Counted from the first letter of the stretch, positions 20,139 through 58,575 are shown. The stretch: DNA of 64,000 nt from Chloroflexaceae bacterium (GCA_012033195.1 JAAUSQ010000001.1:5565-69564); one strand, 5' to 3'. The notes: generated by a model from the letters alone, not told the origin. Translations and numbers: made by a program.

Positions 20139-23100
20139 CTACCGCCGCTCAAGCACAAAGTCTCTGCGCGGCAGGGTGTTGAATTCAAAGGGTATAAGAC
20201 CACTATAGCTGATAGTGTCCTGCGGTTCCTGGTACGAGGACGAACTGTGGTCAATCCGATACCAGATGGTGCCGTCGGGTAGCTCACCAGGGTAGATCGG
20301 CATATAGACACCATACTCGCCGGTGGTCAGGTCAATCTGGTCGCCAGTACGATAACTCGATTGTGGCTTGTACATGTTCACATCAACCCGGAATGTCGGC
20401 GGTGTACCCGTGTCGGCGCGTGTGACCGTTCCGGTAAAGCCCAGCGTGGTTGGTCGCACCAAGATATCACGCGCGAACTCGTAATCATCATTGATGTAGC
20501 GTAATTGCGCCGGGTCAACCACGTCGGTGGTGACATAGTAGACCGTCTCTTGGTTATCCAGCGCCGTGATGTAGGTCACGGCATATGGTGCGGTGTCGGT
20601 GCGCTCACGTTCGAACTCACAGAAGCGCACGAACGTGCGGAGGGTGGTTGAACAGAGCCGCGTGCCAGTCGTATCAAAGACATCGATAAACTCGGCGGTA
20701 ATGGCATTGGTATTGGCATCGGGGTTGTAGATGTTGCGAACCGTGCCGGTGATCTTCTCGCCGCGCCGTGAGAAGACCAGATCACGCTCAAACTCGTTGA
20801 TGGTACCGGGAACGATGCCGTCAATCTGGGCGGTCACGTTTTCGCTCACATAGACATCAGTGCGGTTGGCAATCTGGAAGGTAAGCTCAACATTTTCACC
20901 CACCCCGTCATTCAGGATGACATACATATCACGATACTCGCCCTGCCGGTTGACATCATCCTGGGAACCGGTGCCATAGCGCACACGATCAACCACATCG
21001 TTAGCATCAAGCCAGGTTGGGATAGTGACATCGCCAGTATCGAAGTTGCCCCGGTTCGGGTCGGCGTAGGTAACCCGCCCCGACAGCTTAAGCATGGTTG
21101 GGGCTACTTCGAAGTCGCGGTAGAAGTACCGATTACCATTACCATCGTCAATCGCCGTCGGGTCAACCGTCTCGGTATAGGTAGCCTCGTCCGATTGGCC
21201 CGCATTGATGATATAGGTAGCCACAAACGGATCGAGCGAGGTAACCGTCAATGGACAGTAGTAGGTATCGGTAGCGTCTTCGTTGGTACAGCTTCCATAC
21301 GGCCAACGAATATCGACGCGGGTTGTTGGCGCAAAGTCGGCCAGCAGCGTATTGTTGATATTCCCTTCGAAGTAGATATCAATCGGATTGACCCGGATAT
21401 CAAAGGTGAGCGCATTGAGCGTGTTGGCTTGCAGGTTCTCAAATGGCACGTCGAGGTAGACTGATTCCGAGTTGTTGCCATCATTCACAGACGCATAAAT
21501 ATCATTCAGCACGCCCGATGTCTTGCCATCTTCCAGCACAAAGAGCAGGCTGTAGATACTTGTAGCATCAACATCGTTGTTATTGCTAATTTCTAAGATG
21601 CCATCCCCGTACCCCCAATAGCTTACATAACCAGTCACACCGTTATCCGGGTCAATCGGGTTGTTGTTCTGGTCGGTGAGCCTTCCGGTCAGGCGCACCA
21701 ACGTTGGCAGCGGTATGTCCAGTTCGCCCAGGTCAATGGTGAAGGTTGTGCCGTTCAGCGTCGCCGTCGATGGGTCGATGGTTACATTGGTGACGGCACT
21801 GCTCCAGTAGGTTGAAATCTCGATCTCGGCACTGTACGATGGCTGCTGGTTGAACGGTAGTGTATCGGCGGGGTAGATGCTGCAATCGAAGGTGCCATCG
21901 TACGAACTGGTGCTACAAGTCAGGTTCGGGTCGAGCACGCGAATGTCTATATCAATACCGCTATAATCGAGAATTTTCTGCTGTTCTTCTGCCGTGAGGC
22001 CCGTGCCATCTGGGAAGGCGACCGTGCCGACATAGCGAGCATCGTAGTTGATGACCGGCTGTGCCGTAAAGGTAAAGTTGCGGGTTGCCGTGGTGAGCGT
22101 GCCCACAACCACATTGACATTCCGGGTGAATGTCTGCTCGGCGTTGTTATAGCTGATTTCAAAGGTCAGGTTTGCCGGTGACTGGTTGAGCACGGTAAAG
22201 GTGGCATTATACGCGCCCGTTGCATCGGTACTGGTTCCGCCGATGTAGGTGCCGTTCTGAAAGATAGCTATCGAGGCTGATGCCAGCGGTGTGGCTGCGC
22301 CATCAGAAACGGTGCCCTGCAACTGGAGCCGCGTATGGGTGATGGCGAAAGCTTCGTCAAAGCGGTTCAGTTGCCCCGGTGTGACATTGAGCGTCCGCTC
22401 GAAGTTGGTGACGATGTTGCCAACAGATACCTCGTAGCGAATGCCAATGACTGTGTCGCTGGTGTTGCGGGCGATTGTTGTATCATAGCGGCCCGTAGCA
22501 TCGGGGTAGATCCATGCAATATTAGTTGTACCCTGATACACCCGTATATAGCTTCCGGCAATCGGGTTGCCCGCCGTGTCTTGGAGGGTGCCCACGAATT
22601 GCAGGCGGGTCAGGTTGATACTGAAATCCTGCTCGTACGTTGTCAGGGTTCCCGGCGTGACCGTCGTTGATCGATTGAAGGTGTAGGATGTGCCACCAGA
22701 GGAGATCACATATTCGAGCGCCGCCGTGTTCACGTGGCCCACCGGAATATCGCCACTGTAATTGCCCTGTGCATCCGTACTAAAGTTGTAGAAGAGGTTG
22801 TTATAGCGTACTCGCACCGATGCATTATTGACAGGTGCGCTGCTCAGGTCGGTAATGGTGCCGCGCACCCGCACCTGCGTAAGTGATGGTGGCTCAACAA
22901 TGGTATTAACCGTGGCAGGCTGCCCCGATGTCAGGTTGGTAAAGGTTGCGTAGCCGTAGTTCAACTGCCCATCATAGAAGCTATCCAGGCGGAAGCGGCC
23001 CGTGAGCGCACCGGAGAACGCATTGCCATTGAGATCGACCACGAACGAGAATTGTCCCTGCGCATTGGTCGTGACACTGCTGCCCGGCGGAGTGATGCGC

Positions 23101-23465
23101 TGGAAGAAGAAGCTCGATGGTACCTCGCCCGATAGCGAAACGCTGGTACTGGCAACCGGTGTGCCATCGGCCCGCCGCGCCACACCCGCAATGGTCAGGC
23201 GGGTGGTCGGTCGGAGTTGCAAGGTCTGGTTGTCCAGCGTGAGCAGGCTGCCCGGCTCCACATTGGTAAAGGTTGGTTCCAGGGTCACGTTTTGCCCCGA
23301 TATGAATGTACTGATACGGAACTTGCCACTCAGGGTGCCGTTCGGGAACGCACTGGGTAGCAGGTAGAGCCGATAGCTAAAGCGGCCCTGTGCGTCGGTT
23401 CGGGTGTAGCGATTGTTGAACGGCTCCACTGTGTTGAAGAACGTGCTGAACGGTTCGAGGCCCAC
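20139..23465 (-). CDS. giant secreted repeat protein, segment 5 of 5 (C-terminal CarboxypepD_reg/Cna-B-like repeats)
   Basis: 1108-aa ORF made of roughly 100-aa repeats of the type L.L.G.V.D..G.P.A.A.V...........TDA.G.Y. Its frame is open upstream to about 23505 and joins segment 4 there (...GTVLDG|AGTPVANNQVELVGLEPF...). Confidence 0.8.
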   Translation of the reverse strand: MGLEPFSTFFNTVEPFNNRYTRTDAQGRFSYRLYLLPSAFPNGTLSGKFRISTFISGQNVTLEPTFTNVEPGSLLTLDNQTLQLRPTTRLTIAGVARRADGTPVASTSVSLSGEVPSSFFFQRITPPGSSVTTNAQGQFSFVVDLNGNAFSGALTGRFRLDSFYDGQLNYGYATFTNLTSGQPATVNTIVEPPSLTQVRVRGTITDLSSAPVNNASVRVRYNNLFYNFSTDAQGNYSGDIPVGHVNTAALEYVISSGGTSYTFNRSTTVTPGTLTTYEQDFSINLTRLQFVGTLQDTAGNPIAGSYIRVYQGTTNIAWIYPDATGRYDTTIARNTSDTVIGIRYEVSVGNIVTNFERTLNVTPGQLNRFDEAFAITHTRLQLQGTVSDGAATPLASASIAIFQNGTYIGGTSTDATGAYNATFTVLNQSPANLTFEISYNNAEQTFTRNVNVVVGTLTTATRNFTFTAQPVINYDARYVGTVAFPDGTGLTAEEQQKILDYSGIDIDIRVLDPNLTCSTSSYDGTFDCSIYPADTLPFNQQPSYSAEIEISTYWSSAVTNVTIDPSTATLNGTTFTIDLGELDIPLPTLVRLTGRLTDQNNNPIDPDNGVTGYVSYWGYGDGILEISNNNDVDATSIYSLLFVLEDGKTSGVLNDIYASVNDGNNSESVYLDVPFENLQANTLNALTFDIRVNPIDIYFEGNINNTLLADFAPTTRVDIRWPYGSCTNEDATDTYYCPLTVTSLDPFVATYIINAGQSDEATYTETVDPTAIDDGNGNRYFYRDFEVAPTMLKLSGRVTYADPNRGNFDTGDVTIPTWLDANDVVDRVRYGTGSQDDVNRQGEYRDMYVILNDGVGENVELTFQIANRTDVYVSENVTAQIDGIVPGTINEFERDLVFSRRGEKITGTVRNIYNPDANTNAITAEFIDVFDTTGTRLCSTTLRTFVRFCEFERERTDTAPYAVTYITALDNQETVYYVTTDVVDPAQLRYINDDYEFARDILVRPTTLGFTGTVTRADTGTPPTFRVDVNMYKPQSSYRTGDQIDLTTGEYGVYMPIYPGELPDGTIWYRIDHSSSSYQEPQDTISYSGLIPFEFNTLPRRDFVLERR

Positions 23466-26400
23466 GAGTTCGACCTGATTGTTGGCGACCGGGGTACCGG
23501 CCCATCCAGGACGGTGCCCGATACCAGCACACTGGTGAGATCTGGCTCAATGCTGATGGTGCGCTTGACTTCGCCCGACCCGCTGCCGGGGTCAATCGTG
23601 ATGGTACGGGTATCGGTGCCCCATTCGCCGTTGACCGTTACGGTGACATCAAACGGTGCATCAAGCGGCAGCATGCGGTCACAGATCAGCGTTTCAAAGC
23701 CCTGGCGACCGCTCGACGTCCAGATCTGGCACAGGTTGCCCAGTTGCGGCGATGTGACGGTGGCGTAGTTGCCAAACAGCGGCTTGCTGGTGTTCGGGTC
23801 GGTGATATTGGTAATCAGCACCAGGCTGCGTTCGCTCAGGGCGAAGTCGTTGGTTACCTCGTGATACTGGTAATCGGCCAGCGTCGGCAGATCGCGGCTA
23901 AAGCGTTCGGTCGCATTGTTGGCCATAATTTCAAACACAATCAATGGATCGGTCTGGTTGGAACGCAGAATGACATCCATCTCATACGCACCGGTGGCAT
24001 CGGTCGTCGCCACGCCGGGAGTATTGTCAGCATCGATAAAGAGATGTGGCCCCGTCGCACGCACCGTTGCATTCGGCACCGGGTTGCCTTCGTCATCGCG
24101 CACCACGCCACTCAGCCGCAGGGTGGTTGCGCGGGCGGTCAGGTTCAGGGTCACATTGGCCGATTGACCAACCGGCGGCAAGCCGTTGGGCGGCGGTGCA
24201 CTGTCATCGATGCGGTAGGTGAGGACGGTCTCCCCCCAATCGTCGGAGATGGTGCCGATCACATCGAACGGGTTGCTGATGATCGTCACCTGGTTGCACG
24301 AGTAGCGGTTGGTCTGAGTATCGGTGTCGTACCAGATGGTGCCGCTACACCACCCTTCCAGACCAGGTGCAGAAAGCTCGTAGCGCATCCCCTGCAAGTT
24401 CATCGTCGGCCCAAACTCGTTCACGATAGCACCGGAGATCCAGAGCTGCCGCTCTTCCAGCACCACCGATTGCTCATACTCGTTCAGGTTATCTGGCCCA
24501 CCCGGAGCCAGTGGGTCAATTGTAAACTCACGATAGAAGCTCGGTGCAGAGATGCCCGATTGCACTTGCAGCCGCAGGTCGGCGCTGCTGGCATCGGTTG
24601 GCAGCATCACCAGCATCTCGTACGTGCCGCTCGCATCGGTTGTGGCATAGCCGGTCGCATCGCCACTCAGTTGCACGGTCGCATTCGCAAACGGTGTGCT
24701 ATCCGGGGCGGTCACTGTGCCGTACAGCCGCAAGATAGTTGTACGGATGGTCAGGTCATCGGTAAAGGTAGCCTGCTCGCCATCACCTGGCATCTCGGCG
24801 CTGCCGATCTCACGCTCGAACACACGGCTGCCCCACTCGCCCCGCACGGTAATGGAGTACGGGAAGGTGTCGCGGGTGGTATCAACCGGCGGACAGGTGT
24901 AGGTGGAGGGCGAATTGTTCGAACGGTAGGAATAGGTACAGAACAGACCGATTCCTGGCGCACGCAGTTCGACGCGGGTGCCCTGCCGCCAGAACGTGAG
25001 CGCATTGCTCAGTTCGTGGGTCACGCTGCCGTTCATATTCAGGCGGCGCAAGGCAAAGACAATATCTTCCTGCCGCTCGTTAAGCTGGTCAGTCTGCAAC
25101 GGCACGGTGAGATTAACTTCTTGCTGGGTGCTATTGCCCAGACTGACCGAGCCGTAGCTGAAGCGCAGGCTGAGGTTGGCGCTGGTTGTGTCGGGCGCAA
25201 AGACCAGCCACGCCTCGTAATTGCCCGCTGCATTGCTGGTGACGCGGGCGTAGCCGTCGCCGCTCACCTCGATGATTGCACCATTCAGCGCTGTGCCGTT
25301 CTGGTTGGTAATCTTGCCATACAGCCGTAACGTGTTGGCCTGCACCACGGTATTGTTGCTGACCGTGCCCGCTGCGCCCGCATCCGGCATGGCCGCCCCG
25401 CTGACGGTGTAGCTTTCTTCGGTGCTGCCCCACACGCCCGCCACAGCAACCGTGTAGGCAAATGTGTCACCCGTCACATCGATGGCGGGGCAGGTATACT
25501 CGCCGTTGGTGTTGGTCCAGGTCGCACACCACTCGCCAATGCCGTCGGCCCGTACAATCACGCGCTGACTCGGAATGCCCACGTTTGTATTGTAGGCATT
25601 GACCACGCGGCCCTGAATAGTCAGGCGGCGCACCGTGAAGGCGATATCGACCGTGCGCTGGTTGAACTGGGTCGGCTGAATAGGCATACTGATCGGCTGC
25701 ACCACGGTGAGGCCGTTGTTCTCTACGCGCACCGTAAAGGTAGCTGTGGTGGTGCCCGTCGAGAAGAGCACCGTGCTGCCATAGGTGCCATCGCTGGCGG
25801 TCGTGGTCTGCGCGTTGGCGGCCCCACTGAGGCGTACGGTTGCGCCTGATAGCGGGTCTGCACCATTGGTGACAGTGCCAAGCACGCGCAGCGCCGGGAA
25901 GATCACCTGCTCTTCATACTCTGTCAGGTCGCCCGGCGTGAGCGGTACCACGATTTGATCGGTCAGCGAGTTGGACGGATGGCTCACGCGCAGGGCCAGC
26001 GTTGCGGTGTCGGCATCCGCGCCGAAGAGCAGATAGGTTGAGAAGTCGCCGCCTGCATCGCTGGTCAGTTCGGCACTGGCATCGCCGCCAATAGTGACCC
26101 ACCGATTAGCCAGCGGTGTGCCGTCGGTGCCCGTCAGCCCCACATCAAGCTTCAGGGTGGTTGGTGCCACAAAGAGCGTCAGCGGATAATCGATGCTGGT
26201 ACCCGCTGGCGGTACATAATTAACATAGCCATCAATCTCGAAGGTGCCCCAATCGCCGCTCATCCGGTAGATAATCGGGAAGGGGTCGTCCCAGGTGATA
26301 CGTGCCTTACAGGTGTAGGTGGCATCGTTGCGGGTTGTAGTGGTGCAGAGTGTCCCCACGTCCGGATTGATGACTTCCACCTGTAGCCTGCTCATCGGCA

Positions 26401-28516
26401 GCGCTGGCACCAGTTCGTGAATGACCTGCCCGGTAAAGACCAGCTCGCGTCCAGTCAGGGTGAGGTCACGCTCAATCAGGGTGATGGTGTCGGCACTCAC
26501 GCTGTAGTCGCCCGTTTCGATGACGGTATCGCTGCCAGATCTGACCCGGTAGGTGATCGTGCCGCCAGTGGTGCCGTTGTCCTCAAACAGGTAGATGCTG
26601 TAGGTGCCGTTGTTCCTAGTGGTGGTGCTGCCCCGGTCGTTGACGGTAACGGTTGCATTGGCTAGCGGCGTTTCACCATCGCCTGTGACCTTGCCAAAGA
26701 AGTACAGCAGCGTTGGCTCAACGGTGAAGTTCCGCACCAAGCTTGCCACCCCGCCCGCTGGCGGAATGCTGGTGATGTCGGTGACAAAGCTGGCATTGCC
26801 GCGTTGGGTCACATCGATCTGCACGGCGAACGGGTCGGCACTGGTGACCTGGACCGGACAGGTGTAGTAGCCCTGCGCGTTGGTTGTTGTCTCACACCAT
26901 GCCGTGTCGGGATCGTCCGGTGTCCGCACCACTACCTGCGCCCCATCAACGGGCAGCGTAGTGCCTGCCACCTGATTGCTGGTGACGCGGCCCTGGAAGT
27001 AGAGCGTGCGGGCCGTTGGTGGGGCCGTGCCGTCGCCCGGTGGTGGCTGAAGTGTCAGGTTCTGGCTGAACTCGTTGATCGCACGGGCCGTCAGGTTGGC
27101 GGGCACGGTTGCCACACCAGAGCGATTGCCAAAGCTGCCCTGGAGTTGCAATTCGCCGCTGAGCGTGTCGGTGGCGGCAATGCTCACAATCGTATAGGTG
27201 CCGTTGGCATCGGTGGTGGCGGTGGCTTCGCTCAGCCCGCTGAGGGTGATGGTGGCGTTTTGCAGCAGGGTGCCCTGCTCATTCTGCACCACGCCCGTTA
27301 GCCGTACCACGGTCGGCGATGCGGTGAAGTCGTAATCAAAGACACGCTCACCGCCGGCCTGCGGCAGTTGCAGGTTAATGTCGGCGTTGTCGATGGTCAG
27401 GGCCAGCACAAACGGCTGTCCATTGACCAGCGCGGGTTCGCCTGCCACCCGATAGGATGCTGTGAAGGGGGCATCGTTTTCGAGATTGACAGTACAGCGA
27501 TAGATGCCCTGGCTATTGGTGAGCACATCACAGACCGTGCCCCGCTCTGCTGTGCTGATTTGCACCCGGATACCGGCACGCAGTTCGGGCAGCACAGCAT
27601 TGGTAATGGTGCCTTGCAGCACAATGCTGCGTGCTGTGAAGGGGAGGGCCGTGTTGACAGCAGGCAGGATGTTCAGTGCGCCTGCCGTCAGGTTGCTCAA
27701 GTCCTGGGTGCCCGTCTGCTGCACGTTGCCGTAGCTCACCCGATAGTTCACTGTGCCATTGCTGATGCCAGGGGGCAGTGCAAAGAAGAGTTCGTAATCG
27801 CCCTGATCGTCGGTCTGCACCGTCGCTGCAACCGGACTCAGTACCTCGAAGGTGGCCCGGTTCAGCGGTCGGCTGGTCAGTTCGGTGACCTTGCCATGCA
27901 GCCGCACGGTGGTTGGTGCCACGGTAATATCGCGCAGGTAGCTATTGGCAAACTCGGTGCCCGGCAGCAGGCGGTATGTCGCACTGATCGGGTCGGTGAG
28001 CGGCGTATTCGCCAGACTGACCACGTATTCAACGGTCAGCGGTGCTTCCGTTTGGAAGGAGCTACCACATGTGTATTCGCCTGCGTCATTGGTGGTGGTG
28101 GTGCAGAGCGTACCAAGGTCAGCATCGTCGTCAACGCCCCGGATGACAAGCGTTGCACCGGGCAGACCATAGCCGCTGTTGCTGTTGCGGACGGTGCCGG
28201 AGAACGCGGCACGACTGGCCGTGCTCTGGTCGAGCGTGGCGGCGCTGGCATCCAGCACAAGCTCCACCGATAGCTCGTTCAGTACGTTGACAGTGGCATT
28301 AAAGCGCTGCCGCAACGTGGTTGTTGCCTTGCCTGTCTTTGTTTCATACACCACGTTGAAGTTGAGATCGCCCGCAACCAGGCCGTTGTTCAGGGTCAGG
28401 AAGGCGTTATACCGTCCCTGGCTGTCGGTGGTGGTGTTGGCTCCGATAGTGGTGCCTACCACATTGAGGCCGACCTGGGCATTTGCCAGCACGTTGCCGT
28501 TGGTATCGCGCACCAC
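23330..28516 (-). CDS. giant secreted repeat protein, segment 4 of 5 (CarboxypepD_reg/Cna-B-like repeats)
   Basis: 1728-aa ORF of the same repeat family, for example RLYGKITNQNGTALNGAIIEVSGDGYARVTSNAAGNYEAWLVF. The listed GTG start is internal. The frame is open upstream and joins segment 3 near 28545-28555 (...ERLPVIRT|IVVSPTTLYISGVVRDTNG...). Confidence 0.8.
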   Translation of the reverse strand: MVRDTNGNVLANAQVGLNVVGTTIGANTTTDSQGRYNAFLTLNNGLVAGDLNFNVVYETKTGKATTTLRQRFNATVNVLNELSVELVLDASAATLDQSTASRAAFSGTVRNSNSGYGLPGATLVIRGVDDDADLGTLCTTTTNDAGEYTCGSSFQTEAPLTVEYVVSLANTPLTDPISATYRLLPGTEFANSYLRDITVAPTTVRLHGKVTELTSRPLNRATFEVLSPVAATVQTDDQGDYELFFALPPGISNGTVNYRVSYGNVQQTGTQDLSNLTAGALNILPAVNTALPFTARSIVLQGTITNAVLPELRAGIRVQISTAERGTVCDVLTNSQGIYRCTVNLENDAPFTASYRVAGEPALVNGQPFVLALTIDNADINLQLPQAGGERVFDYDFTASPTVVRLTGVVQNEQGTLLQNATITLSGLSEATATTDANGTYTIVSIAATDTLSGELQLQGSFGNRSGVATVPANLTARAINEFSQNLTLQPPPGDGTAPPTARTLYFQGRVTSNQVAGTTLPVDGAQVVVRTPDDPDTAWCETTTNAQGYYTCPVQVTSADPFAVQIDVTQRGNASFVTDITSIPPAGGVASLVRNFTVEPTLLYFFGKVTGDGETPLANATVTVNDRGSTTTRNNGTYSIYLFEDNGTTGGTITYRVRSGSDTVIETGDYSVSADTITLIERDLTLTGRELVFTGQVIHELVPALPMSRLQVEVINPDVGTLCTTTTRNDATYTCKARITWDDPFPIIYRMSGDWGTFEIDGYVNYVPPAGTSIDYPLTLFVAPTTLKLDVGLTGTDGTPLANRWVTIGGDASAELTSDAGGDFSTYLLFGADADTATLALRVSHPSNSLTDQIVVPLTPGDLTEYEEQVIFPALRVLGTVTNGADPLSGATVRLSGAANAQTTTASDGTYGSTVLFSTGTTTATFTVRVENNGLTVVQPISMPIQPTQFNQRTVDIAFTVRRLTIQGRVVNAYNTNVGIPSQRVIVRADGIGEWCATWTNTNGEYTCPAIDVTGDTFAYTVAVAGVWGSTEESYTVSGAAMPDAGAAGTVSNNTVVQANTLRLYGKITNQNGTALNGAIIEVSGDGYARVTSNAAGNYEAWLVFAPDTTSANLSLRFSYGSVSLGNSTQQEVNLTVPLQTDQLNERQEDIVFALRRLNMNGSVTHELSNALTFWRQGTRVELRAPGIGLFCTYSYRSNNSPSTYTCPPVDTTRDTFPYSITVRGEWGSRVFEREIGSAEMPGDGEQATFTDDLTIRTTILRLYGTVTAPDSTPFANATVQLSGDATGYATTDASGTYEMLVMLPTDASSADLRLQVQSGISAPSFYREFTIDPLAPGGPDNLNEYEQSVVLEERQLWISGAIVNEFGPTMNLQGMRYELSAPGLEGWCSGTIWYDTDTQTNRYSCNQVTIISNPFDVIGTISDDWGETVLTYRIDDSAPPPNGLPPVGQSANVTLNLTARATTLRLSGVVRDDEGNPVPNATVRATGPHLFIDADNTPGVATTDATGAYEMDVILRSNQTDPLIVFEIMANNATERFSRDLPTLADYQYHEVTNDFALSERSLVLITNITDPNTSKPLFGNYATVTSPQLGNLCQIWTSSGRQGFETLICDRMLPLDAPFDVTVTVNGEWGTDTRTITIDPGSGSGEVKRTISIEPDLTSVLVSGTVLDGPVPRSPTIRSNSWASNRSARSSTQWSRSTIATPEPTHRAALAIGSTCYPVRSRTAP

Positions 28517-31203
28517 GCCGCTGATATACAGCGTGGTCGGTGAGACAACAATGTGCGGATGACCGGCAGGCGCTCGCCCACGCCAGCAGCACTCGGATCG
28601 ACCGGGTAGACGGCACTGGTGGTGCCGCGCCCGCTGACGATGTATTCCACGTTGAAGGTATCACTGCTGTTGATGAAGTAGTCACAGGTATAGAAGCCCT
28701 GGGCGTCGGTCTTCGTTTCGCAGATCACGCCCCCATTCTGGCGCACCAGTTGCACAGTTGCTCCGGCGACACCATAGTTCGTAACTAGCGCATTGCGTAC
28801 GCGCCCGGAGAAGGCCAACGTGCGCCCGGTCAGGGCAATGTCTTGGTCGATGGTGGTGAGGGTGTTGATCTGCGGCGCACCACCCGGCAGGGTTGCCAGG
28901 TCGAGGCGCTGCTCGTGGAGGCTGCGTCCGGCGCGGGTGCTGTATTCAACCCGGTAGCGCAGTTCGCCCAGTACATCGGTGCCGCCACCCAGCACGGTGC
29001 TGTTTGGTATCGCCAAGTACAGATCGTAGTTGCCGGCGTTATCGGTGGTACCCTCGACCTGCAAACTTGTCTCGCCAAAGGTCGGGCTAGTCACGATGAC
29101 CGTGGCTCCCGCAATCGGGGTATCCAGATGATCGGCAACCTGTCCGGTCAGACGGAAAGTGGTGGGGGTCAGGGTAAAGTCGGTAGTTTTCACCAGCGAA
29201 CTGCCCGGCGCGGGGATCTCACTCGCCGCCACATCGACCGTCTGTTCGGCGCTACCAACCCCTTCCACGATGACCCGTGCTGCAAATGCCGTGGTGGTGA
29301 CCACACTGGTCACACAGGTGTACTCGCCGCTGTTGTTGGAGGTGGTGACACAGCGCCCGCCATCGATGCCCGCTGCTTCGATGATGACCCGTGCGCCTGC
29401 GACGGCTTGGGCATCCTCGTCATCGGGATTGGACGGAATGAGGCTGTTGGTCAGTTGCCCACTGAAGATCAGGGTGCGGTTCTGGTCAACGGCGTCATTT
29501 TCCCAGGGGCGCGGTGGCTGCGGGGCAGGCTGCGACTCGGTCGTGAGGTCGGTGGTAATGAGGTGCACGCCGCCGCCCGTCACCGCAAACGGCTTCACCA
29601 GTTTGACATAACTACTGCCGTCGCTCTGGGCGGCTTCGTAGATGATTTCACCCGACGTGATGCCATCGGGCAGTGACAGGTACTCGCTATAGTAGCCGTC
29701 TTCGTCTGCCGCCACAAAGAGTGTTGCAAGTCCGGTAATCCGCATCACGCCGCTGGTCAGGGGCAGCCCATCGGGGCCATACAGCCGCCCAACGAGGTGC
29801 AGGGTGTTCTGCGGCGCGGCGGTGAGATCCTGCACATATTCGGCCATATCGCCTTCGGGGGGCAACGCTGCGGCGATGGTGGTAATGGCCGGAGCGCCAC
29901 GCCCGCGCACTTCGTAGCGCAGATTCAGGGCCGATTGTTCGGCGTATGGCTCGGCGTAGTCGGTCAGCCCACACCCATACCCGCCTTCGGTATCGGTGGT
30001 GGTGTCACACAGAATCTTGTTGCTCAGGTCGGTAGCGCGGATAATCACCCGTGCGCCCTTGATCGGCACCTCCGGGTAGCCTTCCAGCGATACCTGCCCG
30101 CTGAACTCCATGCCGACCAGTTGCGGATCTGGCTCGCCTGCGCCATCGACGTGCTCATCCAAACAGAGGCCGCTGGCCTTCAGGTTGCTGGCGCTGCGTC
30201 CGGCGGCGAGTTCAATCGCAAGCGCTTGGATGAAGTCTTCATCAATATAATCAAGGTTTGCTGCACAGTCGCCGCTGAGCAATTGCCGTGCTTCGGCGAA
30301 GTAGTCGCGGTTCTGCGCATTGTTGCCGCGCAGTTCGGAGAGGCGCGGTACCTGGGCATCCTGGGGCTTGTTGTAGGTTTCCGGGCCTTCGCCCGGTTTG
30401 TAGGTAAAGAGCGACTCGCTGCGGGTGGTGACACGCCATGCATCGGCAAAGGCCGTGTAGGAAGTCAGGATGTTCCCGTTGCGGTCGGCGATATCGTTGG
30501 CGGGGATGCCATCCGACGAGCCAAGCATGCCCCGGTAGCGTCCACGCGGCGCAACCGAGAACGAGACATCAATCGACTCGGCGGGGCCAGTGCCCAGCAA
30601 CTGCTCGGCGGTTTTGGCGATCCGTACCCGGATCGCGCCGCCGTCGGCGTAGTCTTCGGGGTTGGTGATGCTGGGATCAAGCACCCAGACCGTTACCGAG
30701 TTGCCTGGCTCAACGCGCAGCACGGCATCGCCCACGGTGTAGAGACCGGGCGCGAAGTCGGCGATCTCGCCATTCAGCAGCAGGATCAGTGAGTCATCCA
30801 CGGATGGGCCAGTCGGGAGTTGTACTTCAAGCACATTGTCCGGATCAACCCGCAAAGCCACGGCAGTATTCCACGAGGCCCAATCGGGGTAGCCGGGAAT
30901 ACGGGCCTGTCGCGTTTGCAGTTCGAGGCCGTTGGTGCCGCTGAGCACATCGCGGGCCATAATAAATTCACCCAGATGCAGGCTGGTATAAGGCACACCG
31001 TCGAAGGTGGTGTAGTGCGGGTCGCCCCACGAGCGCGAGGCAGGCAGCGTCAGCAGCGAGGCAATATAGCCCCACCCGCCACCGCTCCACCAGCCAGAGC
31101 CACCGCCCCACCCCGACCAGCCGCCACAGAAGACGGCAAAGGGGCAGTTGCCATTGGATGACCAGTTCGAAGGACGGGGCCGGATGCGCGGGCGGAACTG
31201 CAT
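28456..31203 (-). CDS. giant secreted repeat protein, segment 3 of 5 (W/G-rich linker, vWD domain with GDPH motif, first CarboxypepD_reg-like repeats)
   Basis: 915-aa ORF. GGWSGWGGGSGWWSGGGWG is followed by SWGDPHYTTFDGVPYTSLHLGEF (von Willebrand factor type D signature, GDPH at 31015-31026), then repeats. The frame is open upstream through 31204-31320, so the listed ATG is internal. Confidence 0.8.
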   Translation of the reverse strand: MQFRPRIRPRPSNWSSNGNCPFAVFCGGWSGWGGGSGWWSGGGWGYIASLLTLPASRSWGDPHYTTFDGVPYTSLHLGEFIMARDVLSGTNGLELQTRQARIPGYPDWASWNTAVALRVDPDNVLEVQLPTGPSVDDSLILLLNGEIADFAPGLYTVGDAVLRVEPGNSVTVWVLDPSITNPEDYADGGAIRVRIAKTAEQLLGTGPAESIDVSFSVAPRGRYRGMLGSSDGIPANDIADRNGNILTSYTAFADAWRVTTRSESLFTYKPGEGPETYNKPQDAQVPRLSELRGNNAQNRDYFAEARQLLSGDCAANLDYIDEDFIQALAIELAAGRSASNLKASGLCLDEHVDGAGEPDPQLVGMEFSGQVSLEGYPEVPIKGARVIIRATDLSNKILCDTTTDTEGGYGCGLTDYAEPYAEQSALNLRYEVRGRGAPAITTIAAALPPEGDMAEYVQDLTAAPQNTLHLVGRLYGPDGLPLTSGVMRITGLATLFVAADEDGYYSEYLSLPDGITSGEIIYEAAQSDGSSYVKLVKPFAVTGGGVHLITTDLTTESQPAPQPPRPWENDAVDQNRTLIFSGQLTNSLIPSNPDDEDAQAVAGARVIIEAAGIDGGRCVTTSNNSGEYTCVTSVVTTTAFAARVIVEGVGSAEQTVDVAASEIPAPGSSLVKTTDFTLTPTTFRLTGQVADHLDTPIAGATVIVTSPTFGETSLQVEGTTDNAGNYDLYLAIPNSTVLGGGTDVLGELRYRVEYSTRAGRSLHEQRLDLATLPGGAPQINTLTTIDQDIALTGRTLAFSGRVRNALVTNYGVAGATVQLVRQNGGVICETKTDAQGFYTCDYFINSSDTFNVEYIVSGRGTTSAVYPVDPSAAGVGERLPVIRTLLSHRPRCISAAWCAIPTATCWQMPRSASMW

Positions 31204-31220
31204 CGGGTCGACCTTGAAAT

Positions 31221-34200
31221 TCAGCGGGTCATCGCCATCGCCGGGGTCGCCGGGGTCGTCGGGGTCGTTGGGGTCGTCGGGGTCGCCGCCACCGCCAGGG
31301 CCACCACCGCCAGGCCGCCGGGGGGGTCGAAGTCGTCGCCGCAGTCGCCAACCGTATCAACATACTCGCGCTCTGGCTCTTCTTCGTCGCCACACGCATA
31401 TGAGAACTCGATGATGTCGGCAGTTTGCTTCCAGTCTTCCAGCGATATATTGCCCACATTGTACAGGCGCAGTGGCATGAAGATGGGGTGCATAAAGCCG
31501 GCCAGCCGATAGCGCCCCGGCTCCCAGCCAGAGCCGGAGTCCCACGTCCAGTAATCACCATCGCGGGTGAAGGTGCCGAGCGCCTGGGGCGGCAAGAAAG
31601 GATCTTCGGGTAGTTCTTCGTCACACGCTGCCCGCGTGATAATCGAGACATACGGGTTGAGGCCCAACGCAGAAATCTGCCAATCGGCAAAACTGCGGCC
31701 CGCTGCGGTCGGATCGGTAAGCCCTAGTACGCGCCGAATAGCACCGAAGGCATCATATTCATAGAACCGCTCAAGTTTGCCGGTCTCGCTGATCTGCTGT
31801 TCGTAGTCTACAACGCGGTAGTAATCGGTACACGTCTGCCCGATGAGGGGGCCTTGGCGTTCCTCTTGTTCGCAGCTCACCCCGTTGATTGTTTCATCGA
31901 TGCGCGGGTCGCCAGGTGTACAATGGCCTGATGCGCCCATACTCACAATCGATTCGGGGAAGCCTGCATTGCGCTCGATGCGTATCTTCCAATCGTCCGG
32001 GTTCAGGCTGGTTGCCAGTTCAAACACGGTCCTGATCCACGGATTATCAAAGATGCCGATATCCAGCCCGATTTCGAGCACAACGCCAAGCCCGTAGCGC
32101 CCGTAGCCCGTAATAAAGCCGCTGACCGGGTTGCCGCCACCGGAGTAGCGGGTATCGGTTTCGAACTCGCCAAAGAAGCGCGGGAAGTCGAGTTGTGCCT
32201 GTGGGGTCAGGGTCAGGTCGGGCACATAGTCGACAATGGCGTTCAGCCCGATGCGGCGCAAGAAGGCACCGAAGCGGCGCGTGTCGGGAATGCCGATCAC
32301 TATGCCGACACGGGTACGTGGGCTGATGTCGATGCTGATCTTGCCCGTGAGTTCATATTTCACTTCGGGCCGATACTCTTTATAAATAGCTTCCTGAAGC
32401 CGATCTTGGTAGGTATCGGCGGGGCTTTCGTCTACCTGCGGCTTAGTCAGTTGTGGCCCGTCCTCGGTGTTAAAGGTAAACTCGGCATGAACATCCCAAT
32501 TAAATTCAAGTGTTAGTTTTGCCGAGATTTCCAGATAGCTATGGAAGATAACATTCAACGAGAAATCGAGGCCAAACGGTGTGGGCAGGAAGCGGGCAAT
32601 AGGCAGGTTGAGGCTGAAAAGCTCCACATCCGACTCGTACTTGACACTGGCGCTCAGTTCGGCTTTGGCGGTAATAAAGGGCTTGACCCACGCCTTGGCT
32701 TCGGCATCGGCGGTGAAATCGTTCGGGCTGATCGACATCGAGACCGATACTTCTGCACCGATCTCAAAGCCAATTGAACCCTGGAAGGCAGCCTGTGCCG
32801 AAAGCACACTGCGGCCCCCGCCATCGCTCAGCACGCCACGCTTGATTTCCCGGCTACACTTCAGTGTGCCGCCCAGTTCGCCCGCAATGCCCCGGCTATC
32901 AAATATTTGCGGTGTGACACCGACATTGGCCGTAACGGTACAAGCGGCGGGCGGCTGATCGATTTTCAGTTCGGCCTCGTGCTTGTCAAGTTCCTTTGCA
33001 TCCAGGTCGGTGTTGAAGAGCTTCGCGGTAACTTTGTGCTTGCCCTCCTTGGTGACTTTGGCCTGGAAGGTATAGGTATGTTGCTGCCCCGCTGCGAGGG
33101 TTTTGTTGCGGAAGACCCACTTGTACGTGTCGCGGGTGCTCATCACCGGCAGCAGGCCATCTTCGCCCGATACATCGATCAGTTCGGGCGGCATCGTTAG
33201 TATAATCTGATCGTATTCGAGCGGCCCACGGGTCGGGTTGCTCACGACAACCTGGAACTCGGCAAGCTGGCCCGGCTCGATGCGACCATTGGTCTGGGTG
33301 GGCGGCACCACCTTGATATCAAGCGTGTCGGACTGAATAGTGATGCGGACATCCTGACGGAGCGCACCCGAAATAGCTCGCACGACCGGGGTGCCGTCGT
33401 CTTTGGCTTTGGTCTTGAACTTAAAGGTATAGGTGGTATCGGGTGGAAGTGAGCCGCCAACCCAAGAAAAGTCGGTGGCGTTGCCTGTTGCGTTCAACCC
33501 ACTGTCCGGGTTGCCGCTGCCGCCGACGTAGGTAAGTTGTCCGCTGCCGAGGCTAATCTGAAGGTCGCGGTAGGGCACCGGGTCACCAGAACGGCGGGTG
33601 TTTTTGATCTCAACCGTAAACTCAACTTCATCACCCACCCGTACATCAGTCTTGTTGGCATTGAGCGTCAGGGTGACTGATTCATCCTGGATGGTAATGG
33701 CTTTCTCGGCAGTTACCTCACCAGAGCGGACCTTCACCGTGACACTCCCGGCACTGACGGCTTTTGCACGCAAGGTGAACTGTTTTTCGGTGCCGGGGGC
33801 TATGTCGCCACCGAGCACCCACGCAACGCTATTGCCAGAGGGTTGTGCGCCACGCAGCGGCAGGGCACTCCCGCCGATATAGCTGAGTTTGCCATCACCC
33901 AGGTCGACCCGCAGGTTTTCATAGCTGATCGGTTCGCCGGCGGTGTTCGGGTTCCGCAGGGTAACAACCAGATCAACTTCCTCGCCCACGCGCAGATCGG
34001 TCTTGCTGGCGCTGACGGTGGCCTGCAACGGTGCGGCACGCGGCTTCAGTTCAATATAGACATCCTTTGATGCTTTTTTGCTGCCCGATTTTAGCTCGGC
34101 AGTGACTTTAACACAGACCGTTTGATTAGCTTTCCAGGCATCGCTGCGAAGCTCGAAACCACCTGCAATGAGCAGCGCGGTGTTGTTGGCCCCCGATGTA

Positions 34201-36461
34201 ATGATCTGGCCTGAAGGGTCGCTATTCACATCTATCGGGCCGATGTTGCCGCTCCACGAATATGCATTGTTTGAAACGTCGGTACTCCCCGCCGTAATAG
34301 TTGGCTCACCACTTGCGGTGTAGGTGGCATTGACCACTTCGGCATAGGGGATGGTGCGGGCCTTGCCCTGATACGCCCCATCAAGCGACAGCGAGAATTC
34401 AATCGGTTGGGTGATCGCGCTGTTATTAAACAGGGTAATCGCATATCCGACCGGGTTACTGTACTGCCCATCGGCAGGCTGGTTGGGCGAAGCATTGGGC
34501 GGCACCGCCACGACAGCGGCGCGAATCACCTGCCCATCATCCGCTGCAACCGTAAAGGTAGTTTGCCGTGCCGCACACCCACCGCTTACCTGCATCAATC
34601 CGGGGGCACGGTAGGCCGCGAGTGGAACAGGCATGCCTGCGTCGGCAGGTTCGCTAGCGGCGGCGGGGACCGCTGGTGTTTCGATGGTTTCGCTCGCCTG
34701 TGGCGGGAGGGCATCGGGCTGTGCTGCGGCCTCAATCGCCTGCCGATGGGCAGCGCGTCGGAAGGTGGCTTCCTGGTCGGGGGTGCGTTGCTGCGCCAAC
34801 CCTGCAAGGCCACTGGTCAGGGCGGGCAGGCTGGCAGCGCTGTCATCGTCGTCTGTCGCTTCGCCGAGCGGCGCGAAGTCGTTCAAAAAGAATGCTTCTG
34901 TTTCGGCACTGTCGAGCATAAAGTCAACCGCACCAAAGTCAGCCGCCATCTCCATCCGGCGCACTACGTCGGTAATCGGTGTCATCGCATAGATGATTTC
35001 GGTGCCGGCGTCGGTCGGAAGGGTATCAATAATGCGTCCGAAGATGGTCTGATCGGAGTCGGTCGCGATAAGCATGCCGGGTGCAAGGGTGGTGCCAAGC
35101 GTTAGTTCGTCTACCACGGTGCGGTAGTGGGGCATCACCTCGCCGCCGTTGGCAGCAATCCAGGCATCCCACTGATTTTCGGGCAGCGTGAGCAAGGCAG
35201 GCGGTATAGCAAAGTCTACCTCGTCAACCACCGCGTCGGCAGGTATCAGGGTGACACCCGGCTCGAATTCTACTGCTGTGACCATGGCCGAGGCGGAGAT
35301 CAGGCCATCAGAGATAGCGCGGAGTTGCATATAGCCCGGAATGCCACTGGTACGCACCAGTACCTGCGCCGGGTCGGTCGGGTCAACGCGATACTGTACC
35401 TGCCCGGCGGCATCCTGGTTGCCCACTACCCAGTCAATTAGCTGGTTGGTAAACGGTACTTCCTCACCGAGCGCGTTGTAGCCAATTACCCGGATTGGTT
35501 TTTCTTCTGCGGTGCTGGTCAGAATAACGTTGCGCGGCTCAAGATCCAGGCGCACAATCTGGTTCAGGTTGGTGAGTTGTTGCAGACGCGTGGGCCACGG
35601 GTCAACGATGAAGAGCACCAGTCCAGTCGTGGTTAGCCCCTGTGTGTCAGTGACAAGGTAGTTGACCTCTACCCACCCTGTCGCAGCGGGGGTGTAGCGC
35701 AGGGTCGAGTCTGTCAGGGCGATGGTGCCATTGTCGGGCGTTGATTGCAGCACAAATTGCAGGGCGGCTTCGGGGCCGTCGGGGTCGTTCACCAGGGTAA
35801 GCAGATCAAGGTCAAACGTCTGGCTGACATACATCGTGACGGTGCGCTCGTCGGCGAGCGGTGGGAAGGTGGGGCCGTCGCCGGGGTCGGTGCGTGCAAA
35901 GATGATGAGACCCTCGGCAACCTGGCGGCGCTCCTGCATAACAACATAACTAATGCGGTCGGTGTCAGTCAGGGTCGCGGTGGGGGTGTAGGTCAGGGTG
36001 CTGCCTGCTATCGCAACGGCCCCGTGATCGGGCGGGTTGCCAATGCGATACGAAGATACAGGGCCGCCATCCGGGTCGCGCACGAGGCTAGCGAGATCAA
36101 CCGAACGGGGGCGGAGATCAGTTAGCAGCACGGTGCGGCTATCGGCCAACGGCGGCTGATCGTTGGATTCGACCACCACCTCAACGCGCCCGATAGTGCT
36201 GGCGCTGCCCGTGGCGCGGTTGTCGGTGGCGATGAACGTCATATCGTCGGCACCAACGAAGCCATTGTCAGGCAGGTAAATCAGCATGTTCTCATCGACA
36301 AAAAACTGACCCTGCAAGGGGGGCTGTCCGGTCGCAAAGGTCACACCGTCGCCGTCGGGGTCTTCGGTAATGTTGGGTAGCCAGATCACCCCGGCCTGTC
36401 CTTCGGGAATCGTCAGGCGGGCAGTTTGGACAACGGGCGGCTGGTTGGCGGGTTCGGTCAC
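31221..36461 (-). CDS. giant secreted repeat protein, segment 2 of 5 (cadherin/Big_9-like, Big_2-like and DUF11-like repeats, plus an uncharacterised beta-rich module)
   Basis: 1746-aa ORF. Three DPDGD...L.Y.P..GF.G.D.F.Y cadherin-like repeats. A Big_2-like Ig domain. Three DUF11/CARDB-like repeats (for example NKTDVRVGDEVEFTVEIKNT). Then about 540 aa with no recognisable motif. The apparent C-terminus follows a C7 run where a +1C correction continues the frame into segment 3. Confidence 0.8.
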   Translation of the reverse strand: MTEPANQPPVVQTARLTIPEGQAGVIWLPNITEDPDGDGVTFATGQPPLQGQFFVDENMLIYLPDNGFVGADDMTFIATDNRATGSASTIGRVEVVVESNDQPPLADSRTVLLTDLRPRSVDLASLVRDPDGGPVSSYRIGNPPDHGAVAIAGSTLTYTPTATLTDTDRISYVVMQERRQVAEGLIIFARTDPGDGPTFPPLADERTVTMYVSQTFDLDLLTLVNDPDGPEAALQFVLQSTPDNGTIALTDSTLRYTPAATGWVEVNYLVTDTQGLTTTGLVLFIVDPWPTRLQQLTNLNQIVRLDLEPRNVILTSTAEEKPIRVIGYNALGEEVPFTNQLIDWVVGNQDAAGQVQYRVDPTDPAQVLVRTSGIPGYMQLRAISDGLISASAMVTAVEFEPGVTLIPADAVVDEVDFAIPPALLTLPENQWDAWIAANGGEVMPHYRTVVDELTLGTTLAPGMLIATDSDQTIFGRIIDTLPTDAGTEIIYAMTPITDVVRRMEMAADFGAVDFMLDSAETEAFFLNDFAPLGEATDDDDSAASLPALTSGLAGLAQQRTPDQEATFRRAAHRQAIEAAAQPDALPPQASETIETPAVPAAASEPADAGMPVPLAAYRAPGLMQVSGGCAARQTTFTVAADDGQVIRAAVVAVPPNASPNQPADGQYSNPVGYAITLFNNSAITQPIEFSLSLDGAYQGKARTIPYAEVVNATYTASGEPTITAGSTDVSNNAYSWSGNIGPIDVNSDPSGQIITSGANNTALLIAGGFELRSDAWKANQTVCVKVTAELKSGSKKASKDVYIELKPRAAPLQATVSASKTDLRVGEEVDLVVTLRNPNTAGEPISYENLRVDLGDGKLSYIGGSALPLRGAQPSGNSVAWVLGGDIAPGTEKQFTLRAKAVSAGSVTVKVRSGEVTAEKAITIQDESVTLTLNANKTDVRVGDEVEFTVEIKNTRRSGDPVPYRDLQISLGSGQLTYVGGSGNPDSGLNATGNATDFSWVGGSLPPDTTYTFKFKTKAKDDGTPVVRAISGALRQDVRITIQSDTLDIKVVPPTQTNGRIEPGQLAEFQVVVSNPTRGPLEYDQIILTMPPELIDVSGEDGLLPVMSTRDTYKWVFRNKTLAAGQQHTYTFQAKVTKEGKHKVTAKLFNTDLDAKELDKHEAELKIDQPPAACTVTANVGVTPQIFDSRGIAGELGGTLKCSREIKRGVLSDGGGRSVLSAQAAFQGSIGFEIGAEVSVSMSISPNDFTADAEAKAWVKPFITAKAELSASVKYESDVELFSLNLPIARFLPTPFGLDFSLNVIFHSYLEISAKLTLEFNWDVHAEFTFNTEDGPQLTKPQVDESPADTYQDRLQEAIYKEYRPEVKYELTGKISIDISPRTRVGIVIGIPDTRRFGAFLRRIGLNAIVDYVPDLTLTPQAQLDFPRFFGEFETDTRYSGGGNPVSGFITGYGRYGLGVVLEIGLDIGIFDNPWIRTVFELATSLNPDDWKIRIERNAGFPESIVSMGASGHCTPGDPRIDETINGVSCEQEERQGPLIGQTCTDYYRVVDYEQQISETGKLERFYEYDAFGAIRRVLGLTDPTAAGRSFADWQISALGLNPYVSIITRAACDEELPEDPFLPPQALGTFTRDGDYWTWDSGSGWEPGRYRLAGFMHPIFMPLRLYNVGNISLEDWKQTADIIEFSYACGDEEEPEREYVDTVGDCGDDFDPPGGLAVVALAVAATPTTPTTPTTPATPAMAMTR

Positions 36462-36571
36462 GGTGATAGTCGTGACGCGGGCCGGGTCGCTCTTGTCCTG
36501 CGCATAATAGGTTCCAACCTGATCAAACTGATATGCAACCTCGGCACCAGCAGGTACCGTCAGTTCGTCAC

Positions 36572-37201
36572 TCAGGGCCAGCAGATGGTATGTGCATCGG
36601 CGGCGGCAGTGCTGGCGGCCCGATTGACTAGCGGCAGGTAAATTGTGAACGGATCTTCAACAAGGTCGGGTTGGTCGGAAGGAGTCGGAGATGGTGAACT
36701 GCCCGGTATTGTGGTATCGGTTGGCGTAGTCGTGGGGGTGAGGGTCGCGCCGCCCGCTGTGGCGGTGAGTTCGGGGGCGTTGGGGGTGCTGGTCGCGGTG
36801 GCAGTGTCAGCCGTTGCGGTGCTGGTTGGTGTTGGAGCACATGGGTCAGGTTGATCGGAGAGACAGACCTGTCGCGCTACAGTGCCCGTGTTACGGAAGA
36901 TAACCTGCGAACCAGTGCTGATTGTTACTACATTGGGCAGCATGCTGGCATCAGTCAGGGTGATGACAACTGTACTGGTCAGTGCCGCCGATTGTTGCAG
37001 CGATGATTGGTGTGGTTGATCGTTGAACAGTTCCTCAGCATGGGTTGCTTGCGAGGAATCGATGTTATGCGAGGGTGCAGCAAAGGCAGGTGTTCCAGCC
37101 GGGGAAGGAATCGCCATACCTGGAGCGAGTGACGAAAAGATGACCGCGTAAATCAACACCAGATACACCGGACGTGCCCAACGTTTTTGCCACCAGTACA
37201 T
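36572..37201 (-). CDS. giant secreted repeat protein, segment 1 of 5 (signal peptide, small beta domain, Thr/Pro-rich linker)
   Basis: 209-aa ORF with AAGAAGAGG RBS. N-terminal signal peptide MYWWQKRWARPVYLVLIYAVIFSSLAPGMA. T/P-rich linker. The frame of segment 2 is open from about 36630, so one indel between 36575 and 36630 fuses the two. Confidence 0.7.
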   Translation of the reverse strand: MYWWQKRWARPVYLVLIYAVIFSSLAPGMAIPSPAGTPAFAAPSHNIDSSQATHAEELFNDQPHQSSLQQSAALTSTVVITLTDASMLPNVVTISTGSQVIFRNTGTVARQVCLSDQPDPCAPTPTSTATADTATATSTPNAPELTATAGGATLTPTTTPTDTTIPGSSPSPTPSDQPDLVEDPFTIYLPLVNRAASTAAADAHTICWP

Positions 37202-37822
37202 GACAACCTCTTCTTGGAGTTAAGATGTTTTTGCTGATCAGATCAATGAGCGTTGTGGGACGTATGCTGCACACAGCGCGACATGGCGAACCGGGCTTAA
37301 ACAGCATAAAGCTGCTGGACTAAAGACTCCGTTTAAGGGGTGTTCTCGATAAATAAGCGATGTATTCTACATCTGGTACAAGATAACTATCTATAACCAG
37401 TGAGAACAGGATGGTATTCAGAGGATATATCTATAAAGCTGACTACTTTATAGATTTGGCAGTACACAAATTGTACTAATACGCTTGACTAGAATATTGT
37501 CAAGGATTGCATTGATGTTATATGGATTTGAAGGTTCAGTATACTTCTTGCACAATCATACACTGTCTCTCTGGATTAGTCAAATAAATGTAAATTATTC
37601 TCATAATAGACTTTTAGAGGGTTGTAAAGCGGTACAGGCCAGAAAGTTGGTAGCAAAAACAAACTTTTTCTGATAAGTACCTAAGTCCTATTTTTGAATA
37701 AGAAGGGACCTGCAACCCATGTAGAAAGGTTATAAGGGGTAAATATGAATGCAAGATAATATCTGATTCTGTAGAAGACACGAGCAAAAAAGAATATTAG
37801 TTTATAGATTAACGTAGTTTTG

Positions 37823-58568: not shown

Positions 58569-58575
58569 GCCAATC

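Follow-up and report, generated by a model that had tools for sequence, protein, structure and literature searches.

Five consecutive minus-strand open reading frames (ORFs) of a Chloroflexaceae bacterium, termed ORFs A to E, are very probably one gene that is broken by assembly errors and whose product is a secreted repeat protein of 5,688 residues. These ORFs lie in a 64,000-nt stretch of DNA (GCA_012033195.1, JAAUSQ010000001.1:5565-69564), which is hereafter called the window and from whose first letter all positions are counted. ORFs A (36572..37201), B (31221..36461), C (28456..31203), D (23330..28516), and E (20139..23465) are all present, co-oriented, and overlapping or abutting, as claimed in an earlier reading made from the sequence alone (the sequence-only reading). 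Counted between stop codons, the open frames extend over 37219..36572 (A), 36656..31221 (B), 31356..28456 (C), 28660..23330 (D), and 23546..20139 (E), and adjacent open frames overlap by 85 nt at the A/B junction, 136 nt at the B/C junction, 205 nt at the C/D junction, and 217 nt at the D/E junction. The frame change is f→f-1 at all four junctions, and such a change results when a base is missing or when a -1 slip occurs. When one base is supplied at each junction, the span becomes divisible by three, as had been noticed (Table 1), and is read as a single open frame, in which 5,688 codons precede the first and only stop. The third-position GC content changes frame at the B/C, C/D, and D/E junctions, as expected. 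The breaks would be single-base under-calls in the draft assembly, located mostly or entirely in short homopolymers, such that C2 is called as C1 (A/B), C8 as C7 (B/C), T3 as T2 (C/D), and G4 as G3 (D/E).

The A/B and C/D junctions are read through by an independent sequence, that of the sister metagenome-assembled genome (MAG) HC914 (GCA_012031155.1). By blastn, its contig L004 matches the window at 99.55% identity and its contig L005 at 99.35%. Near position 36584, the L004 sequence is ATACCATC[C]TGCTGG, with one base more than the window. The sister protein encoded there (P0154, 1,051 residues) is continuous across the A/B junction (...ADAHTILLALSDELTV..., within the longer stretch ...AVADAHTILLALSDELTVPAGAEV...), and the repaired window reads ...ADAHTI|LLALSDELTV..., where the bar marks the junction. 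The A/B junction, which had been placed at 36575-36630, is thus present in this region and is narrowed by the sister assembly to about 36584/36585. An alignment of the A/B region to the giant relatives P0004 and P0006 is too weak to serve as evidence, and is superseded by P0154. Near position 28547, the window sequence is TTGTTGTC, and the L005 sequence is ACATTGTT[T]GTCTCACC, again with one base more. The sister protein P0157 (partial, 2,379 residues) is continuous across the C/D junction (...PVIRTLFVSPTTLYISG..., within the longer stretch ...GERLPVIRTLFVSPTTLYISG...). The frame does change at about 28550, where it had been reported to change, but the proposed reading ...IRT|IVVSP... is not the true one, which is ...PVIRTLFVSPTTLYISG..., with a T missing at about 28547. 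The C/D junction is also spanned by four intact giant homologues in single high-scoring segment pairs, for example by P0004 over query residues 2057-3809 (41.6% identity in 1,786 columns). It lies at a boundary between two repeat units, the second of which starts 13 residues upstream of the GTG listed as the start of ORF D. This result indicates that the listed start is located inside a beta-sandwich.

No sister contig covers the B/C and D/E junctions, and the continuity of the frame at these junctions is indicated by homologues and by repeat register respectively. In 11 intact homologues, a motif that lies on the B side in the window (E.VD...C) and a motif that lies on the C side ((Y/F)(K/R)P(R/K).(R/Q)P.P), followed by the Gly/Trp-rich stretch and then by GDPH, are encoded by one ORF, in which the two motifs are 10-60 residues apart. 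P0004 is aligned across the B/C junction in one HMMER stretch. The C7 run and the reading ...DDFDPP|... given for this junction are found in the sequence, and the run is the most probable site of the break within 31221-31356. The D/E junction, which had been given as about 23500 with the reading ...TVLDG|..., is also as described in the sequence. It is spanned by one repeat unit (23208-23551, residues 4552-4666, 55.8 bits) and lies in the most conserved motif of this repeat. A one-base repair gives ...VSGTVLDG|AGTPVANNQVE..., which is aligned with the consensus sGtVtnadGtPlagatVe with correct spacing. Thus, domains or motifs straddle every junction in register: the D/E junction is inside a unit, the C/D junction is at a unit boundary crossed by four homologues, the B/C junction is between two motifs of the family, and the A/B junction is inside P0154. 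The proposal of one gene of about 17 kb, restored by four single-base corrections and encoding a protein of about 5,680 residues, is therefore borne out by sister contigs (A/B and C/D), by homologues (B/C), and by a repeat unit (D/E).

Other genes on this contig, which are normally intact and have no relation to the giant gene, show breaks of the same type. In gltB, which encodes the large subunit of the core enzyme glutamate synthase, the coding sequence lies in two frames. Frame 1 (7460..10093) aligns to residues 1-754 of the ferredoxin-dependent enzyme (ferredoxin-GOGAT), and frame 0 (9856..12204) picks up at about residue 743/779 of the NADPH enzymes. On glutamate synthases of solved structure in the PDB, these halves meet end to end, and one C added at the break restores the conserved 'CFAGTPSPVGGIGY' motif. 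A TPR-repeat gene reads ...AQAHREAG|NLAAAAAVLQQAEQ... and ...VAIAQDNW|VAALNQFERAAS... after one-base corrections at its two breaks, one of which is shifted in the opposite direction (f→f+1). A GT1-family glycosyltransferase gene reads through as ...AGLVER|ALGLADVVSITGYV... after one such correction. The window contains at least eight frame breaks, four of which are in the giant gene, which occupies 27% of the window; this is no excess (P=0.14). The sister assemblies are themselves broken at sites where the window is intact, namely near 21658 (C4 versus C3), where ORF E is split in L003, and near 34074 (A5 versus A6; L004), where P0154 is truncated. Near 20187, L003 and the window differ in a T run (TT versus TTT) and in the last ~16 codons, and the window version fits the repeat-unit consensus. 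The indels between the assemblies are mostly differences in homopolymer length. Within the gene, the assemblies differ by 54 substitutions, of which 34 (63%) are synonymous and 20 non-synonymous, where 25% synonymous is expected by chance (P=4.6e-9); 34 of the 54 are at third codon positions, and the ratio of non-synonymous to synonymous substitution rates (dN/dS) is ~0.2 in the repaired frames. This result indicates that the repaired frames are under purifying selection.

The four breaks are best explained as assembly artefacts, and biological frameshifts are disfavoured, because the same breaks occur in gltB and the other two genes, because the sister assemblies have different breaks, and because the repaired frames are under purifying selection. 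The sequence-only reading, which preferred single-base corrections to real frameshifts, is favoured in this respect. Several points weigh against it. The B/C (31320) and D/E (~23503) junctions lie in gaps between the sister contigs, such that the missing base at these junctions is inferred. A scan of metagenome contigs with the VWD part of the protein finds no relative and therefore provides no independent sequence over these junctions, and a composite query for sister fragments across them detects only P0158 on L003, which starts 98 nt downstream of the D/E junction. In addition, the window and the sister assemblies differ by 0.3-0.7% and are not of the same clone. This divergence is compatible with real mutations in the window, by which the gene would be a recently inactivated pseudogene, or only the 209-residue product of ORF A would be expressed in this population. 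Genes for giant surface proteins are frequently lost or inactivated, which also counts in favour of this explanation. We nevertheless regard it as improbable, because it demands four independent one-base deletions in 17 kb without any in-frame stop or other decay, and because the same defect is present in gltB and two other genes of the window, the sister assemblies are broken at other homopolymers, and the repaired frames show a strong synonymous bias.

A further explanation is recoding, in which the frames would be joined by programmed -1 ribosomal frameshifting or transcriptional slippage, or in which the C7 tract at the B/C junction would be a phase-variable switch for the C-terminal 3,700 residues. 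All four shifts are -1, the C CCC CCC at the B/C junction is a slippery heptamer in frame, and its run of a single base is long enough for slipped-strand changes. However, the overlaps at the A/B, C/D, and D/E junctions contain no X XXY YYZ heptamer, the sister DNA contains one extra base at the A/B and C/D junctions, intact homologues exist that do not need recoding, and homopolymer-length errors are pervasive in these assemblies. Programmed -1 frameshifting as a general explanation is rejected, since a slippery heptamer is present at only one of the four junctions, and recoding or phase variation is plausible at the C7 tract only. Overall, recoding is considered very unlikely, somewhat more so than inactivation of the gene.

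Five separate, independently translated genes for cooperating surface proteins would be the literal reading of the annotation, in which NCBI lists ORF A (HC876_00220, NJO04083.1), ORF C (HC876_00205), and ORF D ('carboxypeptidase regulatory-like domain-containing protein') separately. At least three separate products are annotated for this gene, one with a 60-residue nonsense tail. Against this reading, ORFs B to E have neither a signal peptide nor a Shine-Dalgarno (SD)-like motif, the listed starts of ORFs D and E are each inside a beta-sandwich unit, the out-of-frame tails are low-complexity nonsense, and the ORFs are fused in sister assemblies and homologues. An SD-like GAGG and a hydrophobic N-terminus are found only for ORF A among the five ORFs. 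The earlier claim that only the first ORF has a ribosome-binding site and a signal peptide is correct as an observation, but its SD part is a weak criterion, because the intact neighbour genes ruvB and copA also lack an SD. A scan for promoters and terminators inside the giant gene detects none above the expectation from shuffled sequence. Translation as five genes is hardly credible and is the least probable of the explanations considered.

The preferred reading is thus a single gene interrupted by assembly errors, and both the gene model and the contig, including gltB, the TPR-repeat gene, and the glycosyltransferase gene, need correction. The case shows clearly how a giant gene can be broken up into several 'hypothetical proteins' by single-base indel errors in a draft MAG. 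Censuses then miss giant proteins, a problem to which others have also pointed (bioRxiv 10.1101/2023.11.21.568195). The coordinates of the junctions, of the domains of the repaired protein, and of the other broken genes are given in Table 1.

Table 1. Positions in the window of the giant gene, its junctions, the parts of its product, and the other broken genes
Feature	Position	Strand	Basis or remark
Whole gene	20139..37201	-	17,063 nt as assembled; with four single bases added, 17,067 nt = 3 x 5,689
Junction A/B	36584..36585	-	Window ATC-TG, sister L004 ATCCTG; one C missing (blastn)
Junction B/C	31320..31326	-	Likeliest site, C7 run (true length inferred as C8); ...DDFDPP|RRPGGGG...
Junction C/D	28547..28548	-	Window TTGTT-GTC, sister L005 TTGTTTGTC; one T missing (blastn)
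Junction D/E	23501..23504	-	Likeliest site, GGG (true length inferred as GGGG); ...SGTVLDG|AGTPVANNQVE...
Predicted Sec-type signal peptide or signal anchor, residues 1-30, MYWWQKRWARPVYLVLIYAVIFSSLAPGMA	37112..37201	-	Sequence inspection; SD-like GAGG upstream of ATG 37201
Small beta domain, cupredoxin-like (weak match)	36866..36997	-	Pfam Cupredoxin_1, E=0.0025, 18 bits, below the 27-bit cut-off
Thr/Pro/Ala-rich linker	36659..36844	-	Translation
YLPLV motif	36626-36640	-	After the Thr/Pro/Ala-rich linker
Three Big_9/cadherin-like domains	35568..36458	-	Pfam Big_9, 87.4 bits (cut-off 23.6), three stretches; also Cadherin_4 and Cadherin_5
Beta-rich region, previously 'Big_2-like'	35238..35561	-	No Pfam match; conserved in P0004
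Three DUF11/BatD-like domains	32988..34025	-	Pfam DUF11, 53.1 bits (cut-off 24.6), three stretches; BatD, 28.8 bits
Conserved ~520-residue module, residues 1440-1961	31320..32885	-	Profile search among relatives
Acidic Gly/Pro linker	31225-31319	-	Translation
Basic motif FRPRIRPRP	31171-31197	-	Conserved in homologues
Gly/Trp-rich stretch	31066-31128	-	Conserved in homologues
VWD domain, starting WGDPHYTTFDG; GDPH at 31015-31026	30478..31029	-	Pfam VWD (PF00094)
Post-VWD region, ~115 residues	between VWD domain and repeat array		
33 tandem ~100-residue CarboxypepD_reg-like beta-sandwich units	20142..30129	-	Hidden Markov model built from the protein's own repeats
gltB, glutamate synthase large subunit	7460-12204	+	f→f-1 break at C4 run near 9885-9888
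TPR-repeat gene	54882..58604	-	Three overlapping frames; breaks near ~57300 and ~55640
GT1-family glycosyltransferase gene	5241..6820	-	Break near ~5950; N-terminal half 5909-6820, C-terminal half 5241-6002

The repaired protein is a Chloroflexaceae member of an uncharacterised family of surface proteins of 3-6 thousand residues. An exhaustive HMMER search detects 869 relatives, including proteins of 5,487-6,068 residues. The earlier remark that proteins of this size are rare is therefore qualified: the protein is not unique, and intact relatives as large as itself are present in public data. P0004, the closest of the intact giants, is collinear with the window protein from the anchor to the repeat array; it has 6,068 residues and is encoded by a single 18.2-kb ORF (JABXJS010000182.1, GCA_013538855.1), and other giant 'hypothetical proteins' are P0006 (3,734 residues), P0001 (2,985), P0003 (5,487), and P0009 (5,848). 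The window protein aligns to P0004 over residues 244-780 (P0004 residues 318-854), 1497-1766 (961-1213), 1803-2399 (1884-2478), and 2057-3809 (2130-3889). The P0004-type giants share with the window protein a collinear core that consists of the ~520-residue module (kept in a subfamily), the basic Pro/Arg motif, the Gly/Trp stretch, the GDPH-containing VWD domain, the post-VWD region, and the alternating repeat array. Identity is 30-42% over the VWD domain and the first ~1,700 residues of the array, and reaches 53% in the VWD core of P0001. Outside this core, P0004 and the window protein have in common an N-terminal anchor, an Ala/Pro linker, a YLPL motif, cadherin-like repeats, and the 'Big_2-like' beta-rich region. 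In contrast, the heads differ among the giants, in that the window protein has three DUF11 domains and P0003 and P0009 have beta-propeller-like repeats. P0004 also has, in its module, an insert of ~620 residues (residues ~1220-1840) that contains an HExxH motif (HELFHAIQY) and is absent from the window protein; the motif suggests an embedded metallopeptidase-like domain.

The order of domains previously described for the protein holds in most of its parts. The hydrophobic N-terminus that was taken for a signal peptide is judged by eye, and the Thr/Pro-rich linker, the acidic Gly/Pro linker, and the Trp/Gly-rich stretch are visible in the translation. The three Big_9/cadherin domains, the three DUF11 domains, and the VWD domain match Pfam families above their gathering scores. 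By contrast, the Big_2-like domain is not supported, as no Pfam family is found at E<=1 for residues 560-1000; the region is aligned with P0004 as part of the 244-780 segment with 34% identity. No NCBIfam family is found above its own cut-off.

The ~520-residue module is kept in a subfamily of the relatives, always directly upstream of the Gly/Trp-rich stretch and the VWD domain. An AlphaFold2 model built from a 10-sequence alignment has very long beta strands (predicted local distance difference test score, pLDDT, 60; predicted template modelling score, pTM, 0.53). Weak Foldseek matches of this model to beta-pore-forming toxins reflect long hairpins only and are not used. The VWD domain is matched at 30.5 bits against a gathering cut-off of 22.9, over profile positions 4-154 of 156. 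Its best relative in the PDB is FCGBP (E=1.4e-11), and the WGDPHYTTFDG of the window protein lines up with the GDPHYTTFDG stretches at which FCGBP is cleaved. Of 150 relatives, 121 carry GDPH, as do 26 of the 29 closest.

The repeat array extends from residue 2359 to the C-terminus and forms a rod of ~3,300 residues. The 33 units detected agree with the 'some thirty' repeats counted previously, and the Pfam family CarboxypepD_reg (PF13620) is matched in ORF D (165.5 bits), ORF C (51.8 bits), and ORF E (50.1 bits) above its cut-off of 32.3 bits. Of these units, 14 carry a Cys pair and 19 are free of Cys, and the two types mostly alternate. This alternation, which lapses at residues 4549-5050, would imply a two-domain super-repeat of ~200 residues. 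The C-terminus of the protein is itself a repeat unit (...LIPFEFNTLPRRDFVLERR).

The window protein is a giant multidomain repeat protein that in concept resembles stalk-type adhesins, and the oddity of its five ORFs is most probably an assembly artefact. Gram-positive stalk-type adhesins (Cna, SdrD, and other MSCRAMM-type proteins) and giant Gram-negative adhesins likewise present many tandem Ig-like or beta-sandwich units as a long spacer for ligand-binding domains; the ice-binding adhesin of Marinomonas primoryensis, for example, is a giant repeat adhesin of 1.5 MDa (PMC4083281). A weak SdrD_B match is found in the window protein by Pfam. Unlike these adhesins, the window protein has no LPXTG sorting signal, no other C-terminal anchor, and no RTX/type I secretion system (T1SS) signal. 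Its repeats belong to the CarboxypepD_reg family, not to Cna-B or BIg, and are divergent (~25% identical), not near-identical. Its putative binding domains precede the stalk in the chain, and its sole membrane-like element is likewise at the N-terminus.

The N-terminus is of a secretion type, and the domain content is throughout of an extracellular kind. Export of the protein would be mediated by the Sec pathway. The protein would then be attached to the filament surface, or project from it, as a long fibre, with its repeat array as the spacer and with binding modules formed by its cadherin-like and DUF11 domains. Such a fibre could mediate adhesion or cohesion, either between cells or between cells and substrate, in mats of a filamentous phototroph. 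The sequence-only reading proposed, as candidate roles, a component of the sheath, of adhesion, or of the gliding surface. The previous assignment to a filamentous bacterium agrees with the source, which is a Chloroflexaceae MAG (order Chloroflexales).

The VWD domain of the window protein has GDPH at the canonical position, where the domain starts, and also has the C-terminal motif G(M/L)xGxxxG...F(A/G)xxW. Eukaryotic VWD domains with GDPH include those of FCGBP, MUC2, MUC5AC, RGM/hemojuvelin, and SUSD2 (PMC10880436, PMC8267560, PMC6696261). In the eukaryotic domains, the bond between the Asp and the Pro of GDPH is cut autocatalytically, which makes the domain more stable (PMC10880436, PMC8267560). 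The VWD domain of the window protein may likewise cleave itself at GD|PH, such that the protein would be processed into a head of ~2,060 residues and a rod of ~3,630 residues, with the two fragments staying associated. The VWD domain of the window protein differs from its eukaryotic counterparts in that it is bacterial, is present in a single copy, and is not accompanied by C8, TIL, or E modules. It also lacks their conserved cysteines (GLCG is replaced by GMLG), and therefore lacks the disulfide that tethers the cleaved eukaryotic fragments.

Domain content is the whole basis of the proposed role as surface adhesin or fibre, and this and several other points weigh against the functional proposal. 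A Foldseek search of the model of the ~520-residue module against the PDB gives no match at E<=1e-3. At the C-terminus there is neither a sortase-type signal (LPXTG, then a hydrophobic segment, then a basic tail) nor another recognisable anchor, and no conserved secretion or sortase genes are found in the neighbourhood. Cleavage at GDPH is demonstrated, as far as found, only for eukaryotic VWD domains (PMC10880436, PMC8267560). A search of the literature on the accession and on surface and gliding proteins of Chloroflexus finds nothing relevant. We put forward tentatively, as a possible but doubtful idea, that proteins with the conserved core make up an unstudied family of giant surface fibres, present in Chloroflexota and other bacteria, that cleave themselves into head and rod at GD|PH. 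If it is true, it would be the first case of autoproteolysis of a bacterial VWD domain, and could provide for release of the rod from, or its coupling to, the surface of filamentous mat-forming phototrophs. The remaining interest lies in this conserved GDPH-VWD core, which together with the alternating repeat rod may serve in phototrophic mats to hold filaments together, in adhesion, or as part of the sheath.

The YLPLV-like motif occurs shortly after an N-terminal low-complexity linker in intact relatives as well, at residue 124 of P0004, 115 of P0015, 140 and 166 of P0034, and 138 of P0007. The motif may act in sorting or processing; we know of no description of it. Beside the P0004 gene, a second, divergently oriented giant gene of more than 2,272 residues with a weak DUF4785_3rd match is located on the minus strand of contig L002 (1-5271), so that genes for giant surface proteins may cluster in this genome. 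Opposite the giant gene of the window, antisense ORFs of up to 528 residues are present on the plus strand (23744-25330, 27368-28273, and 29797-30792). Long antisense ORFs are usual in GC-rich coding DNA, and nothing suggests that these are genes. The scan of genome contigs retrieves a sole contig, L001 (JAAUSY010000120.1), which is a 14-kb contig of a sister MAG. Its positions 1-960 match 960 nt of ORF B (window 36320-35362), with 100% identity over the first ~540 nt followed by an error-rich patch, and its positions 961-10961 contain unrelated genes (DUF4915, a PMP-repeat protein, and multihaem cytochromes). This contig crosses no junction, and its join is either a chimera or a rearrangement inside the giant gene.

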